Positions 1 to 5,132 of a stretch of 5,132 nt of DNA are shown here, piece after piece. This DNA is from a virus (Duplodnaviria > Heunggongvirae > Uroviricota > Caudoviricetes). The translations under genes and the position numbers were made by a program. The stretch is from IMG/VR virus record IMGVR_UViG_2636416161_000006. One strand, written 5' to 3'. Below the pieces are notes generated by a model. It did not search any database and was not told where the DNA came from. It was given only the letters and a program-made list of their open reading frames with translations. Positions within the stretch are counted from its first letter, which is position 1. Every line of letters begins with the position of its first letter.

Positions 1-29
1 GTGTTGGTTCAGTTGGTTCAGTTGGTTCA
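1..29 (+). repeat. Three perfect tandem direct copies of the 9-bp motif GTTGGTTCA (3-11, 12-20, 21-29); extended 11-mer GTGTTGGTTCA at 1-11
   Basis: Read directly from sequence. The array starts at the first bases of the window, so further copies upstream cannot be excluded. Confidence 0.95.
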
Positions 30-72
30 ATTTGTAAAGAGTATTGTTTTATAAGGATTTTATTCTTTTTAT

Positions 73-115
73 TGAACCAACACTGAACCAACAACACGGC
101 ATTTTGAACCAACAC
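73..115 (-). repeat. Three copies of TGAACCAAC(A) at 73-81, 84-92 and 105-113, the exact reverse complement of the 1-29 motif (inverted orientation)
   Basis: Read directly from sequence. 73-83 and 105-115 are the full 11-mer TGAACCAACAC; 84-94 is TGAACCAACAA. Confidence 0.95.
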
Positions 116-209
116 AACGTGACTGAATTGATGAGCACAACATCTGGCTGGCATTAGAGAGTGTTTTACGAAATCTGAACACCACATCACTGGTTTCAGT
201 GGGAGATTG

Positions 210-668
210 ATGATGAAGATAATCGCAAAGGCTTTTCATCATGTATTTGGCAAAGTATCCGATTTGCCATCTGTAATACCGATGAACAACAGAAGGGAGA
301 TGCTGCTTGATGTGGTTGTGTTCCCATACATAGACCTTTCTGAACCAATGAAAGCAACTCTTTTCAGAAAGTATCTTGGCGACTTTAAACGCCGTTTTAC
401 AGGCGTTAACGGGATGGTTGATATCTGCTCCATCAGAGATATTGTTGAACTTGCAGGGATTAATTTGTGGGGAGAAGCGGCAGCAGCATACAAATGGCTT
501 GAACGCCTGCACTGTGTTTCATTCAGTGACATGAGTGCTGATATCGCTTTAATGGTTCCTCACAAAATCAATATGGTCTTTGCTGGTGGCAATTACACTT
601 ATCCATGGAACCAGGAACAAAGAGAGAACAGGAAAGCTCACGCCATGAAGAGTAATGCGACTCCATAA
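210..668 (+). CDS. Hypothetical protein, about 152 aa; possible helix-turn-helix or winged-helix DNA-binding segment (SIRDIVELAGINLWGEAAAAYKWLERL)
   Basis: ORF-track frame 207..668. GGGAGA at 201-206 is an SD-like element, so ATG at 210 (or 213) is a more plausible start than TTG at 207. Stop TAA 666-668, followed by an intrinsic terminator. The overlapping minus-strand ORFs look spurious. No family recognised. Confidence 0.7.
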   Translation: MMKIIAKAFHHVFGKVSDLPSVIPMNNRREMLLDVVVFPYIDLSEPMKATLFRKYLGDFKRRFTGVNGMVDICSIRDIVELAGINLWGEAAAAYKWLERLHCVSFSDMSADIALMVPHKINMVFAGGNYTYPWNQEQRENRKAHAMKSNATP

Positions 669-720
669 ATATAGTTTTTAGAGTCCATAAAAAAACTGTC
701 AAAACCTGACATACAGAACG

Positions 721-753
721 ATGCCACCAGCTACTGAACGGTGGCATTTTTTT
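721..753 (+). terminator. Rho-independent terminator: stem ATGCCACC / GGTGGCAT (8 bp), 11-nt loop, then a run of seven T
   Basis: Perfect 8-bp inverted repeat 721-728 / 740-747 followed by TTTTTTT (747-753), about 55 nt after the stop of the 210-668 CDS. The T-run is on the + strand only. Confidence 0.75.
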
Positions 754-785
754 GTGCTATTTGTTTCATATTTTGCAATCACAAT

Positions 786-815
786 GATGAATGTTGCGTT
801 TTATGAAACTATAAT
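786..815 (+). promoter_or_regulatory. Candidate sigma70 promoter for the 849-4598 operon: perfect -10 TATAAT (810-815) with a weak -35 (GATGAA/ATGAAT/TGAATG at 786-793)
   Basis: Consensus -10 hexamer 34 nt upstream of the first start codon of the unit and directly downstream of a terminator. The -35 matches TTGACA at only about 3 of 6 positions. Transcription start not determined. Confidence 0.45.
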
Positions 816-817
816 GA

Positions 818-833
818 CTGTTGTTTTATACAG
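818..833 (+). promoter_or_regulatory. LexA-box-like (SOS box) palindrome CTGTTGTTTTATACAG (CTGT-N8-ACAG)
   Basis: Matches the invariant CTGT and ACAG half-sites of the gammaproteobacterial LexA consensus TACTGTATATATATACAGTA, with an AT-rich centre. Lies between the -10 hexamer and the SD, a typical repressor position. Only one such site occurs in the window. Confidence 0.55.
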
Positions 834-848
834 TTCTAAGGGGGCGTT

Positions 849-1022
849 ATGGCTATTTCAGTAAAGCCAGTATTGATAAGTGAGAAGCAAATGGAAGCGA
901 TAAAGAAAATTCAGGAGGAGCAGCGTAAAAAATCAGAGGTAGGAGTTGCGCCAACGATCCACGAAATTGCTCGGGGATTAATGGATAAGGCGCTGGCTTA
1001 CACTTTAACTGGACGTGGGTAA
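849..1022 (+). CDS. Small protein, 57 aa (MAISVKPVLISEKQMEAIKKIQEEQRKKSEVGVAPTIHEIARGLMDKALAYTLTGRG); possible ribbon-helix-helix DNA-binding protein
   Basis: Not in the supplied ORF track, probably below its length cut-off. Strong SD AAGGGGG (838-844) 4 nt before ATG 849. Stop TAA 1020-1022 lies 4 nt before ATG 1027 of the next ORF. Pattern of short N-terminal strand (KPVLIS), helix, turn and helix resembles CopG/Arc-type RHH proteins. Fold assignment is inference. Confidence 0.65.
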   Translation: MAISVKPVLISEKQMEAIKKIQEEQRKKSEVGVAPTIHEIARGLMDKALAYTLTGRG

Positions 1023-1026
1023 ATCA

Positions 1027-2493
1027 ATGGCTACGTGGCAACAGGGTATTAATTCTGGTGGTTTTCTGGCTGGCATCGGTACGCAAAATGAGAATGCGCC
1101 AAAGGCAAGCGACATTAACGCAACGCTTGGTCTGATCCGCGAAAACAATGAACTGGCTCGCTCAGGTGCAAATAACGTTGCTCTGACAGGTCTTCGTGGT
1201 CTGGCTGGAGTTGCTGATATTTATAAGCAGCAGCAACAGCAGGAGCGTAAAGCGGCATTCCAGAAAGGTTATGCAGATGCTTATGCGTCCGGTGACAGGG
1301 AGCAGATGCGTAATCTTATTACAGCATTCCCAGAAGAGTTTGAGGAAGTCCGTAAAGGGATGAGTTATGTCGATGATGCTCAAAGGGATGATTATGGCAA
1401 TCTGGCGCTCAAAGCACAGGTAGCCTCATCGCTTGGTCCGGGCGCATTTGGCAGGTTCATGATGGATAATGAGCAGGAGATGCGTCGTTTAGGTATCCCT
1501 CCAGAAACTATTGCTGAAATGCAGGTTAATGACCCGCAGGGCTTCCAGCATTTCGCAGGTAATCTGGCGCTGTTTTCTCTCGGTCATGAGAAGTATTTCG
1601 ATATCAAAGATCAAATGGAAGGTCTGGATATTGAGCGTGGCAAGTTGGCAGAGACAATCCGCAGCAATCAGGCTGGCGAGGCACTTCAGGCGAGAGGGCA
1701 GGATATTAGCCGAGCAAATGCGTTAACGTCAGCATATGCACCAACAGCAGCAATGCAGAATTACAATCAGTACGCTCAAATGTTAAAGGCGGATCCTGAG
1801 GGGGCTGCGGCATTTGCGGCAGCGGCGGGAATTAATACAAACGCCAAAAAATTAATGAGTGTTAGAGAAAACGATGATGGCACTGTCACAAAATACTACA
1901 CAGACGGAAGTGAAGAGCAGGGAAAACTAAACCAGCCAATATCTGGAGATGGGTTTCGTCCAATAGCTTTGCCAACAGCCCAAAAGATCATGGAAAAGTC
2001 GCCAGAAGGGGCTAAAAAAGCTGCTGGATTTGCATACAGAGTTAGGGATGCTCTTGATTCAATAGATACACTGAAAGACCAGCTTAGCCCACAGCGAGTG
2101 GCGATCATTAATAATGCTTTGGGTAATGGGACGCTGGCTAACTTAACGCTCAGCCCAACAGAGCAGCAATACGTTGTTAATGCTAATGACGCAATAATGG
2201 CAATACTCCGTCAGGAAACAGGGGCAGCTATCGTACCTGCTGAAATGTCAAAATATTATCAAATGTATTTCCCTCAGCCTGGCGACTCCACAAAAACCAT
2301 TGATACCAAGCGCCGGAAGATGGAAAACCAGTTCAATTCGCTGAAAGCTGCTTCTGGTCGAGCTTATGATGCTTTGCGGGTTATTTCAGCAGTTGACAGA
2401 GGAACTTCTTCTTCGTCGCAGACATTGCCGCAATCTGAGCAGGTATCACAGCCAGCAGCCAGCAGTAACTTTTCTTCACTATGGGGTGATTAA
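1027..2493 (+). CDS. Hypothetical protein, 488 aa from ATG 1027 (492 aa if GTG 1015 is used); Gln/Ala-rich, low-complexity, no hydrophobic segment, function unknown
   Basis: Uninterrupted ORF of about 1.47 kb. ATG 1027 follows the upstream stop by 4 nt (translational coupling), with weak SD-like GTGGGT at 1015-1020. Its stop TAA 2491-2493 overlaps the next start in TAATG. Contains a QQQQQ run and Ala-rich tracts. No Walker, HxH, nuclease or other catalytic motif recognised. Confidence 0.9.
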   Translation: MATWQQGINSGGFLAGIGTQNENAPKASDINATLGLIRENNELARSGANNVALTGLRGLAGVADIYKQQQQQERKAAFQKGYADAYASGDREQMRNLITAFPEEFEEVRKGMSYVDDAQRDDYGNLALKAQVASSLGPGAFGRFMMDNEQEMRRLGIPPETIAEMQVNDPQGFQHFAGNLALFSLGHEKYFDIKDQMEGLDIERGKLAETIRSNQAGEALQARGQDISRANALTSAYAPTAAMQNYNQYAQMLKADPEGAAAFAAAAGINTNAKKLMSVRENDDGTVTKYYTDGSEEQGKLNQPISGDGFRPIALPTAQKIMEKSPEGAKKAAGFAYRVRDALDSIDTLKDQLSPQRVAIINNALGNGTLANLTLSPTEQQYVVNANDAIMAILRQETGAAIVPAEMSKYYQMYFPQPGDSTKTIDTKRRKMENQFNSLKAASGRAYDALRVISAVDRGTSSSSQTLPQSEQVSQPAASSNFSSLWGD

Positions 2494-4598
2494 TGGCTAA
2501 AGCATGGAAAGATGTTATCGCCTCTCCACAGTATCAGGCGTTAGCACCAGAACAAAAAGCGCAGGCTCAGGAGCAATACTTCAATGAAGTCGTGGCCCCG
2601 CAAGCCGGAGAAAGTGTAGAGCAGGCTAAGCAGGATTTTTATGCTGCCTATCCACTACCATCAACGAATGAAATAGACCGATCCCAATCAGCAACTCAAA
2701 ATATTCAACATACATCATCTGATAATTCTCTTGCGTCAGGGTATGCAAAGTTAGCTACTCAGCAAAGAGAGGGGCTTGAGCGTTCAGCAGAACAGGGAGC
2801 CAGTCTTGGGGCTGCGATGCGCGATGCTATAACAGGCGAAAGCCGAATGACTCCAGAGATGGAGAGACTGCAAAATGTCGACCTTGCCCCAGAGTTAACC
2901 TCACTCAGCATGGATGCTCTAAAAGCTCGATGGTCTCAACTTTTCGGCTCTGACGCATCTCAGGAAAAGATTCTTCAGAGCATGGGAGCGAAATTAAGGC
3001 AGGATGAGAAGGGTAACACTATCGTTTCCCTGCCATCCGGTGATTATGCTCTGAACAAGCCGGGTTTATCGCCGCAAGACGTGGCATCGTTTCTGGCTAA
3101 TGCGCTGGCGTTTACACCAGCGGGCAGGGCTGGAACGGTGCTTGGTGCCATAGGAAAATCAGCAGCTACAGATTTAGCACTACAGGGAGCCACCAGCCTT
3201 GCTGGTGGAGAAGATATTGATCCGTTACAAACGGTAATTTCTGCTGGCATTGGTGGTATTGGTAAGGGGCTGGAAAATACAGCGAGTGCGGTTTCGAGGG
3301 CTGTTCGTGGTGATATGTCGCCTGAAGCAAAGGCTGCTGTCAACTTTGCATCGGAAAGAAATCTGCCGTTAATGACCAGTGACATGCTGAAAGATAAAAC
3401 CTTTATGCAGAGTCAGGCTCAGACATTAGGCGAAAGAGTTCCTTTTTTTGGAACCGGTAAGAATCGGCTGAATCAACAACAAGCACGAGAAAATTTAGTC
3501 AGAACATTTAGCGATGGTCTGGGTGGCATTTCTGATAAACAGCTTTATGAATCTGCGACTAAAGGGCAACAAAAATTCATTGAGGCAGCAGGAAAGCGAT
3601 ATAACCGCATAATTGACGCTATGGGGGATACCCCTGTCGATCTCTCAAACACGGTAAAAGCTATCGACAATCAGATTGCCGTGTTAAGCCGCCCGGGCAA
3701 ATCTCAGGATAGAGCCGCGGTAAAAGTCTTGCAGCAATTTAAAGACGATATCACCAGCGGACCAAATGACCTGCGTCTGGCGAGGGAAAACAGAACCGAT
3801 CTTCGAAAGCGATTTATGGCGTCATCTGACACTGTTGATAAAGATACGCTCCAGAAAGCCAGCGATATTATCTACAAGGCATATACGGCGGATATGAAAA
3901 AAGCCGTAGCCAAAAATCTTGGAGCAGACGAAGCCATTAATATGGCAAGGGTTGATCGCTCATGGTCTAAATTCAATGACATGATGGGAAGAACGCGCGT
4001 TCAAAAGGCAATAGCCAGCGGCAAGGCCACGCCTGAGGATGTAACAAAACTCGTTTTTAGCCAAAGCCCATCAGAACGTTCTCAGCTTTACAGGCTTCTG
4101 GATGACAATGGTAGGCAAAACGCACGAGCAGCCATAGTTCAGAATGCTGTAGATAAGGCGACTGATCCGTCTGGAAATATCAGTGTTGAGAAGTTTATTA
4201 ATGCGTTACACCGGAACAGGAAGCAATCAGCAACTTTCTTTAAAGGCGTACATGGAAAGGAACTGGACGGCGTTATTAAATACCTCAACGATACAAGACA
4301 CGCGGCAAAAGCGAACGTTCAAAACTTAAATGGTCAGCAGCTTTATGGATTGTTAGTTGGTGGTGGCATCATAAACGCAGCAGTATTAGCGGGGATGCTA
4401 AAAACGGCTGCGTTTGTTGTTCCTGCTGCTGGTGCCGTAGGCGGAGCAGCGAAGGCATACGAAAGCCCTGTTATACGAAATGCCTTGTTACGTCTGGCAA
4501 ATACGCCAAAAGGTAGCACAGCATATGACAGAGCGATCAGTACGGTCACACAATCACTGACCACAGCAGCACAAGCATCGCAAAAGGAAGCTCAATAA
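2493..4598 (+). CDS. Hypothetical protein, 701 aa; mostly hydrophilic and low-complexity with a C-proximal Gly/Ala-rich hydrophobic hairpin (about aa 617-653); possible membrane-inserting protein
   Basis: Uninterrupted ORF of about 2.1 kb. SD GGGGTGA (2483-2489), ATG 2493 overlapping the upstream stop. Hydrophobic stretch LYGLLVGGGIINAAVLAGMLKTAAFVVPAAGAVGGAA is encoded at 4341-4451. Stop TAA 4596-4598. No family recognised. Confidence 0.9.
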   Translation: MAKAWKDVIASPQYQALAPEQKAQAQEQYFNEVVAPQAGESVEQAKQDFYAAYPLPSTNEIDRSQSATQNIQHTSSDNSLASGYAKLATQQREGLERSAEQGASLGAAMRDAITGESRMTPEMERLQNVDLAPELTSLSMDALKARWSQLFGSDASQEKILQSMGAKLRQDEKGNTIVSLPSGDYALNKPGLSPQDVASFLANALAFTPAGRAGTVLGAIGKSAATDLALQGATSLAGGEDIDPLQTVISAGIGGIGKGLENTASAVSRAVRGDMSPEAKAAVNFASERNLPLMTSDMLKDKTFMQSQAQTLGERVPFFGTGKNRLNQQQARENLVRTFSDGLGGISDKQLYESATKGQQKFIEAAGKRYNRIIDAMGDTPVDLSNTVKAIDNQIAVLSRPGKSQDRAAVKVLQQFKDDITSGPNDLRLARENRTDLRKRFMASSDTVDKDTLQKASDIIYKAYTADMKKAVAKNLGADEAINMARVDRSWSKFNDMMGRTRVQKAIASGKATPEDVTKLVFSQSPSERSQLYRLLDDNGRQNARAAIVQNAVDKATDPSGNISVEKFINALHRNRKQSATFFKGVHGKELDGVIKYLNDTRHAAKANVQNLNGQQLYGLLVGGGIINAAVLAGMLKTAAFVVPAAGAVGGAAKAYESPVIRNALLRLANTPKGSTAYDRAISTVTQSLTTAAQASQKEAQ
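3190..3208. other. Back-to-back Chi octamers forming a perfect palindrome CCACCAGC-CTT-GCTGGTGG
   Basis: GCTGGTGG (E. coli Chi) on + at 3201-3208 and its reverse complement at 3190-3197, i.e. Chi on the minus strand. Additional Chi octamers at 582-589 (+) and 724-731 (-, inside the terminator stem). Confidence 0.6.
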
Positions 4599-4659
4599 CA
4601 GATGACCATGGATGGTTGGTTATAATAGTAATTAGTATTTTTTCAAATAGTTATGAACA

Positions 4660-5058
4660 TTAACACTTGCCTTTAACATTGCCGACAAATGAGCCTGTAA
4701 ATGAGCCTATATCAGATCGACTAATTGTTCGTGTATGGATCACTTTTCCGTCATTTGAGATTGCCCATGTGACAAGCGTCAGTTGACCATCTCGATAGCT
4801 TCTTCCCATCATGGCATTCGGAGATAGCGGGTAATAATCAATACCTCCACCTATACCATCTTTTGCCAAGATAAGATCCGCCTTCTCTTTACTTATTACC
4901 AAATGAAATGTATCTGGTATAGATGATAACTTATAGTTATACCCATCTGAACTTGAGGCTTCTTGTCCTTTCAGATCACCAATAATCCAGCATTCAGCGT
5001 TCGCTCCAAAAGAAGCAAATAATAAACCGGAGACAACCAATCGCTTCAATTGATTCAC
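4660..5058 (-). CDS. Small secreted (periplasmic) protein, 132 aa precursor with a predicted Sec signal peptide (MNQLKRLVVSGLLFASFGANA, cleavage after ANA); mature domain of about 111 aa begins ECW and ends in Cys
   Basis: ORF-track frame 4660..5121. An internal GTG (5056-5058) is preceded at 6-nt spacing by the strong SD AAAGGGAGG and gives a textbook signal peptide (N-terminal K/R, hydrophobic core, AxA site). The upstream ATG at 5121 has no SD within the window and would add 21 non-signal residues. Not a lipobox (E at -1). About 42 percent GC by hand count of several lines. Confidence 0.75.
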   Translation of the reverse strand: MNQLKRLVVSGLLFASFGANAECWIIGDLKGQEASSSDGYNYKLSSIPDTFHLVISKEKADLILAKDGIGGGIDYYPLSPNAMMGRSYRDGQLTLVTWAISNDGKVIHTRTISRSDIGSFTGSFVGNVKGKC

Positions 5059-5132
5059 ACCAACCCTCCCTTTAGCGTTGTTTAGAATGGCAATTGGATT
5101 TGCCCCTATATTTCCAGACATCTGTTATCACT

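Follow-up and report, generated by a model that had tools for sequence, protein, structure and literature searches.

Arc, from the arc-ant operon of phage P22, and CopG, from the copG-repB operon of pMV158, are small ribbon-helix-helix (RHH) autorepressors, each encoded by the first gene of the operon that it controls. At the Arc and Mnt operators, an RHH dimer of dimers occupies a dyad whose half-sites lie one helical turn apart. Among phage satellites, operon I of the Staphylococcus aureus SaPIs is reported to be a packaging and interference operon under LexA control (Ubeda et al., 2007, as cited in PMC6092414). In enterobacteria, experiments have shown that the P22-like phage Kapi1 causes excision and transduction of EcCIMP1, a PICI of Escherichia coli MP1 (PMC11773190). 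That paper does not discuss the small gene that is our subject here, and the words "ribbon" and "LexA" have 0 occurrences each in it. For P22 itself, mutations that escape exclusion by SieA map to gp16 and gp20 (PMC10461980).

The window analyzed here, meaning the whole 5,132-nt stretch of DNA, belongs to a phage satellite (PICI) of the EcCIMP1 type. Over positions 1-5094 its identity to E. coli chromosomes reaches 99.7%, and in E. coli AHM8C212RI the window content lies inside an island of ∼17 kb between yicC and dinD, in the order tyrosine integrase, AlpA-type HTH, AntA/AntB antirepressor, Ash-family gene, TOPRIM-DUF927 primase, window content, and PerC-family regulator. All of the traits by which a PICI is recognized were found, namely an integrase, an AlpA-type regulator, a primase with an adjacent origin, a size of ∼12-20 kb, and the lack of capsid and lysis genes. 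The window island has the same backbone as EcCIMP1, including an identical WP_000181940.1, and the same promoter, LexA box, and Shine-Dalgarno (SD) sequence ahead of the operon considered below; in EcCIMP1, a 53-aa homologue (WP_001018524.1, 92% identical to the 57-aa protein of the window) precedes homologues of gp14, gp7, gp20, and gp16. The two islands differ in their integration sites (tRNA-Thr for EcCIMP1 vs. yicC/dinD) and in having four vs. two injection-module genes. Circular records of 12-23 kb labeled as non-mobilizable plasmids, among them NZ_CP148430.1 (L026), NZ_CP146545.1 (L027), and CP031370.2, also carry a gene of the 57-aa family together with satellite content (integrase, AlpA, and primase), and are probably excised or replicating satellite DNA. 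The features of the window that bear on the operon are collected in Table 1.

Table 1. Features of the window from the origin-like repeats to the end of the injection-protein operon.
Feature	Position	Strand	Remarks
Iteron array, origin-like	1-115		Three GTTGGTTCA at 9-bp spacing, AT-rich spacer, three inverted TGAACCAAC
Intrinsic terminator of the 153-aa ORF; 5′ boundary of the transcription unit	722-755	+	Stem GCCACC...GGTGGC, then T7 run
Distal dyad box, candidate operator	764-779		TTTCATATTTTGCAAT (TTTCA-N5-TGCAA), about −58 to −43; both strands match
Weak −35-like hexamer	787-792	+	ATGAAT (3/6), 17 bp from the −10, between the dyad boxes; nTGATC in other loci
Proximal dyad box, candidate operator	794-809		TTGCGTTTTATGAAAC (TTGCG-N5-TGAAA), about −28 to −13, abuts the −10
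−10 hexamer	810-815	+	Perfect TATAAT, same position in 17/20 aligned loci
LexA box	816-835		GACTGTTGTTTTATACAGTT, core CTGT-N8-ACAG at 818-833; covers the predicted transcription start
Shine-Dalgarno sequence	837-844	+	TAAGGGGG, 4 nt 5′ of ATG 849; anti-SD duplex (16S 3′ end) −11.1 kcal/mol
Gene for the predicted RHH protein, 57 aa	849-1022	+	ATG 849, TAA 1020-1022; RefSeq WP_001018522.1
P22 gp20-like ejection protein gene	1027-2493	+	Pfam Inj_translocase 1.3e-83; phrog_917 4.5e-143; weak SD
P22 gp16-like ejection (DNA transfer) protein gene	2493-4598	+	phrog_770 2.1e-161, phrog_29117, phrog_29864

A first-pass annotation of the window described the 57-aa ORF as unlisted. It was missing only from the ORF track supplied for that annotation; RefSeq carries the same ORF, labeled hypothetical protein. 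We found 45 close homologues of the 57-aa protein and, among 1.84 billion representatives, a family of 55 clusters at 50% identity, all of them short proteins; across 40 family members the core (residues 5-50) is ungapped. Compared with homologous genes in 15 other loci from other genera, the ORF gave pS values of 0.7-0.98 (saturated) vs. pN values of 0.04-0.26, and dN/dS was 0.09 and 0.065 in the comparisons for which dS was computable. Because the homologues and clusters, the saturated synonymous sites, and the low dN/dS exceed what chance would give, the ORF is a real gene under strong purifying selection. Loci of the family occur only in Enterobacterales (Escherichia, Leclercia, Klebsiella, Raoultella, Serratia, Pantoea, Erwinia, Lonsdalea, Rahnella, Pectobacterium, and Chimaeribacter), and tblastn against 50,697 phage genomes returned no match at E ≤ 10. 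This empty search also ruled out an origin of the gene as a fragment of P22 gp7/gp14 DNA. The family is previously unnamed, is without a Pfam model or a characterized member, and is satellite-specific.

The start signals of the gene were compared with those of its neighbors. The SD had been called the best in the window, which is true of all plus-strand starts (anti-SD duplex energies of −11.1 kcal/mol for the 57-aa ORF, −7.2 for gp20, and −9.0 for gp16), but a minus-strand site at 5063-5072 is slightly stronger (−11.8 kcal/mol). A GGGGG or GGAGG SD is kept in the homologous loci. The position claimed for the ORF was confirmed at both ends: a canonical LexA box ends 15 nt before its ATG, and a gap of 4 nt (1023-1026) separates it from the ATG at 1027, which is also the RefSeq start of the gp20-like gene. 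The gp16 ATG overlaps the gp20 stop (TAATG). Translational coupling to the large downstream ORFs, the other part of that claim, holds for the window and the tape-measure lineages described below, where the genes overlap as TGATG or TAATG, but does not extend to L003, L012, and L013, in which gaps of 60-300 nt intervene.

The RHH pattern noticed earlier in the amino acid sequence is supported by structure prediction. The AF2 model built from 41 diverse family members reached a high confidence (pLDDT 90.4, pTM 0.70) and has the strand-helix-helix order of an RHH domain of ∼45 aa, with an extended segment at residues 1-11 (a basic arm plus the strand), helix A at 12-28, an 8-residue loop (SxxGVAPT, 29-36), helix B at 37-53, and a variable C-terminal tail. 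A model from 15 close sequences scored lower (pLDDT 74, pTM 0.31), and fold searches with it were uninformative. The predicted structure superposes on solved RHH proteins, and its best structural match is the N-domain of TraM. At the sequence level, no RHH model such as Pfam RHH_1 matched the 57-aa protein. Scans of the protein and 15 family members against Pfam, NCBIfam, PHROGs, and PADLOC yielded nothing meaningful; profile searches of PDB sequences with the 15- and 41-member alignments yielded chance matches only; and with hhalign the family matched 13 RHH sequences no better than 11 control sequences and gave no signal against the F and pED208 TraM N-domains. Relative to these domains (pED208, 3omy/3on0; F, 4qpo), identity is 8% and the hhalign probability 1.5%, and the 57-aa protein corresponds to the RHH part only, without the C-terminal tetramerization and TraD-binding domain and outside any oriT/tra context, so that it does not qualify as a TraM.

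Conserved features of the family are consistent with the predicted fold. The N-terminal arm is basic, position 6 is K or R in nearly all members, position 11 holds an N-cap residue (S/T/N/D), helix B opens with S/T, and S29, G32, and R42 are invariant. The putative strand, V-K-P-V-L-(I/L), is unusually hydrophobic for a DNA-reading ribbon, K6 and residue 4 being its only polar positions; judged by the register of TraM and CopG, the outward-facing residues could be V5/P7/L9. From the RHH fold as modeled we infer that the protein dimerizes and binds DNA in a sequence-specific manner.

Upstream sequences from 20 loci in 11 genera were aligned by anchoring them on the −10 hexamer. The alignment is gap-free and comprises a 16-nt distal box, a 14-nt spacer that holds the weak −35, and a 16-nt proximal box abutting the −10; 3′ of the −10 there follow a CTGT... 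element, the G-rich SD, and the start codon. Both boxes are dyads of the form TTTCA-N5-TG(C/A)AA with half-site centers 10 bp apart, and the two lie at a distance of 30 bp. More distant family members keep the box that abuts the −10 as the variant TTGCA-N5-TGCAA, and the boxes are missing in the two most distant loci, L028 and L031. No covariation was seen between strand residues and box sequence; in P0070, K6 is absent and the TTGCA half-sites are kept. No additional copy of the dyad boxes turned up when the rest of the satellites was searched, each satellite having a single such pair, and the boxes therefore define no wider regulon.

Two nucleotides after the −10, CTGTTGTTTTATACAG at 818-833 is the sole exact CTGT-N8-ACAG in the window. 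Scored with a position weight matrix built from 20 E. coli LexA boxes from the literature, it reached 17.5 bits, vs. 13.2-26.1 bits for the training boxes, and ranked second in the 35-kb locus, behind the dinD box. Judged by sequence, the window thus has the arrangement expected of the LexA regulon, with CTGT-N8-ACAG at the promoter and transcription start, and SOS control of the operon is plausible in E. coli. It is not family-wide, because the canonical box (17.5-20 bits) occurs in six of the 20 loci (the window, EcCIMP1/L011, Erwinia persicina, Pantoea 1.19, Lonsdalea, and P. coffeiphila), while 12 have a LexA-like site one base shorter (CTG-N9-CAG) and the remaining two have no site. The likeness to operon I of the SaPIs lies in a satellite late operon whose helper-exploiting morphogenesis genes stand behind a LexA box and would be expressed upon SOS induction of the helper; the differences are a different host phylum, unrelated genes, and a LexA box that is canonical in only 6/20 loci here. 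We know of no RHH first gene in SaPI operon I.

In every locus the small gene lies 3′ of the primase region and is the first gene of a plus-strand operon. What follows it depends on the lineage: gp20 and gp16 in the window; homologues of P22 gp14, gp7, gp20, and gp16 in EcCIMP1 and L011; T7-like internal virion proteins with transglycosylase domains in Leclercia, Klebsiella, Pectobacterium, and L031; a 108-aa protein (phrog_19131) and a tape measure of 1,050-1,190 aa in Erwinia, Pantoea, Chimaeribacter, and Serratia; a baseplate hub and a small terminase in Rahnella; and a transglycosylase/tape-measure-like protein with a TerS-like protein in Raoultella. The cargo of the operon is matched to the helper virion type. 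The small protein is 57-90% identical across these lineages while the downstream cargo differs, and in the 12,152-bp circular L026 an identical small protein is kept despite the loss of gp16 and of most of gp20. Because the cargo varies by lineage and L026 keeps the protein without it, the small gene belongs to the satellite backbone rather than to the cargo. Backbone membership therefore argues against a specific chaperone or antitoxin and for a role tied to another constant element, and the constant element alongside the small gene is its promoter.

We favor, with a probability of roughly 0.55, the reading that the 57-aa protein is an Arc/CopG-style autoregulator of the satellite injection-protein operon. 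Among the roles suggested at first sight, the proposed autoregulation is the best fit, given the first-gene position and a dyad-box pair kept at a fixed distance in 20 loci of 11 genera. Acting like Arc in arc-ant or CopG in copG-repB, the protein would dimerize via its N-terminal strand, and dimers of dimers would bind both 15-bp dyad boxes, which flank the weak −35 of its own promoter; the resulting negative feedback would limit expression of the membrane-active injection proteins. In E. coli, the LexA box over the transcription start would tie the operon to SOS, when helper prophages are induced, and with a strong SD for the 57-aa ORF, a weak one for gp20, and 4 nt between the two genes, ribosomes would move on into gp20. 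As the boxes lie on both sides of the −35 and take up the spacer, their occupancy should repress. From this layout we infer that the dyad boxes are the target, that the effect is repression and not activation, and that LexA binds its site; AlpA, PerC, or a host factor could occupy the dyad boxes instead.

The resemblance to Arc and CopG covers several features, including size (45-57 aa, a bare RHH domain), the place of the gene at the head of the operon, immediately after the promoter, a dyad operator (a candidate one in our case) that overlaps this promoter, has its half-sites spaced by about a helical turn, and is compatible with a dimer of dimers, and a downstream gene translated immediately afterwards. 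In contrast to this shared organization, there is no detectable sequence similarity to Arc or CopG, helix A (17 aa) and the A-B loop (8 aa) are longer, the strand is hydrophobic, there are two candidate operators 30 bp apart, and the cargo consists of virion injection proteins.

An RHH protein might also act away from its own promoter. Regulation in trans of helper-phage or host promoters, e.g., by shutting helper ejection or late genes so that the satellite copies are incorporated, would agree with the predicted fold and the atypical strand, and satellites commonly interfere with helper late gene expression, as SaPI PtiA and PtiM do. The helpers implied by the cargo are nevertheless of unrelated virion types, yet the protein core is almost invariant, which makes a shared helper target unlikely; the gene's own promoter is, moreover, the only conserved DNA element that travels with it, and we consider regulation in trans unlikely. 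The first-pass annotation also offered the protein as the reader of the 9-bp arrays at 1-115; it would then be an accessory DNA-binding protein at the satellite origin, comparable to TraM or TraY at oriT or to omega or ParG at partition sites. Although the TraM N-domain is the top structural match and the GTTGGTTCA/TGAACCAAC iterons are as conserved across lineages as the small protein, this role appears quite improbable, as the protein has neither the TraM tetramerization domain nor sequence similarity to TraM, and the iterons always directly follow the primase stop, in other lineages 0.7-3.5 kb from the small gene and sometimes with opposite-strand genes between. The array of the window starts ∼25 bp past the stop of the TOPRIM-DUF927 primase gene, and in L009 and the satellites of Raoultella and Erwinia the primase gene is followed by the same iterons. 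PICI and SaPI origins in which iterons, an AT-rich spacer, and inverted iterons lie beside a primase-helicase gene are bound by Rep, and the array at 1-115, in which an AT-rich spacer separates three iterons from three inverted ones in that same position, fits a Rep-bound satellite replication origin.

Roles without DNA binding were weighed against the same conservation pattern. The gene always directly precedes injection, tape-measure, or hub genes and is often translationally coupled to them, and a hydrophobic strand would suit beta-augmentation of a partner, as expected of an adaptor or chaperone that loads injection proteins into helper procapsids or tails or keeps them non-toxic before assembly. 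Such partners would be unrelated, coming from podo-, sipho-, and myovirus-type virions, vs. a near-invariant small protein; an identical small protein is also retained where the cargo has been deleted, and the fold family is overwhelmingly DNA-binding, leaving an adaptor with a low probability in our estimation. The suggestion of an antitoxin-like partner, specifically an RHH antitoxin of a type II toxin-antitoxin pair, is very unlikely and has already been largely refuted: the chain runs for only 4-10 variable residues past helix B and hence lacks a toxin-binding tail, and in place of a conserved adjacent toxin gene the neighbors are lineage-specific virion proteins (gp20 and gp16 in the window). 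A toxin and defense search, including PADLOC, of the genes downstream of the small gene gave no match; the 108-aa protein, likewise without a toxin or PADLOC match, precedes the tape measure, as a tail chaperone would. It is also conceivable that translation of the ORF matters and its product does not, the ORF being a leader that loads ribosomes for gp20, whose own initiation is poor. The strong SD, the weak gp20 SD, and the 4-nt gap would be expected of such a leader; strong purifying selection on the amino acid sequence, with saturated synonymous sites, the confidently predicted fold, and gaps of 60-300 nt to the next gene in several lineages make it exceedingly improbable.

Beyond autoregulation by the 57-aa protein, we tentatively raise a broader and distinctly less probable idea, that the RHH gene and its two-box promoter form a fixed "expression head" in front of swappable, helper-matched genome-delivery modules, with which satellites bring their own injection proteins and in which an RHH switch keeps membrane-active proteins off until induction. 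The modules would be P22 gp14/7/20/16, T7-like internal virion proteins, the chaperone and tape measure of a siphovirus, and the baseplate hub of a myovirus. The injection genes retained in the window are exactly gp16 and gp20, the SieA-escape pair. As SieA exclusion is overcome via changes in these two proteins, the satellites may carry both in order to enter helper lysogens, and we offer as a hypothesis only the possibility that satellite-borne injection proteins serve to pass injection-blocking superinfection exclusion there.

Taken alone, the 57-aa ORF would be one more small RHH regulator, and its value is that of a marker and handle. Biologically, what surrounds the ORF is of greater interest, a conserved promoter-plus-RHH head driving interchangeable genome-delivery modules: apart from the small gene and the promoter ahead of it, nothing is constant in an operon that carries helper-matched injection, tape-measure, or hub proteins in satellites of at least 11 enterobacterial genera. 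If the protein regulates this operon, it would provide a direct genetic way to ask when and why satellites express their own genome-delivery proteins, e.g., for escape from Sie-type exclusion, and the gene may bear on the unexplained superinfection-immunity phenotype of EcCIMP1. The gene and the boxes also make a compact signature for finding this class of satellites in genomes.

Several additional observations concern the regions around the conserved promoter. The shorter CTG-N9-CAG element, CTGTATAAATATCAG, is strongly conserved at about −26 from the ATG in most non-Escherichia lineages (L003-L005, L009, L013-L016, and L019-L023); an RNA hairpin formed by CTG...CAG was considered and rejected, as only 3-4 pairs would form. 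A conserved pair of motifs containing GATC (CGATCnAAACGATCAAAT) lies ahead of the distal box, ∼70-95 nt 5′ of the −10, in L004, L006, L013-L017, and L020-L023, and could represent Dam or IHF-like sites. The pair is absent from the window, where the terminator takes that position. At 3960-4000 of L028 the SD falls within a perfect 10-bp inverted repeat (TTTCCTCCTG...CAGGAGGAAA), which could sequester the SD and so replace promoter-level by translational control.

Outside the operon, the window encodes a 153-aa ORF (207-668) between the origin and the terminator, which RefSeq lists as hypothetical and which had no Pfam, PHROG, NCBIfam, or PADLOC match. A minus-strand ORF at 4660-5121 has a signal-peptide-like N-terminus and the SD AAGGGAGGG (−11.8 kcal/mol), and matches phrog_2651 (unknown function, 2e-22); its RefSeq version is 132 aa long (WP_001426179.1). 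The final ∼38 bases of the window (5095-5132) match the end of an IS2 element (IS3 family), inserted just 5′ of this minus-strand gene (4660-5058), and similarity to the reference islands stops at 5094.
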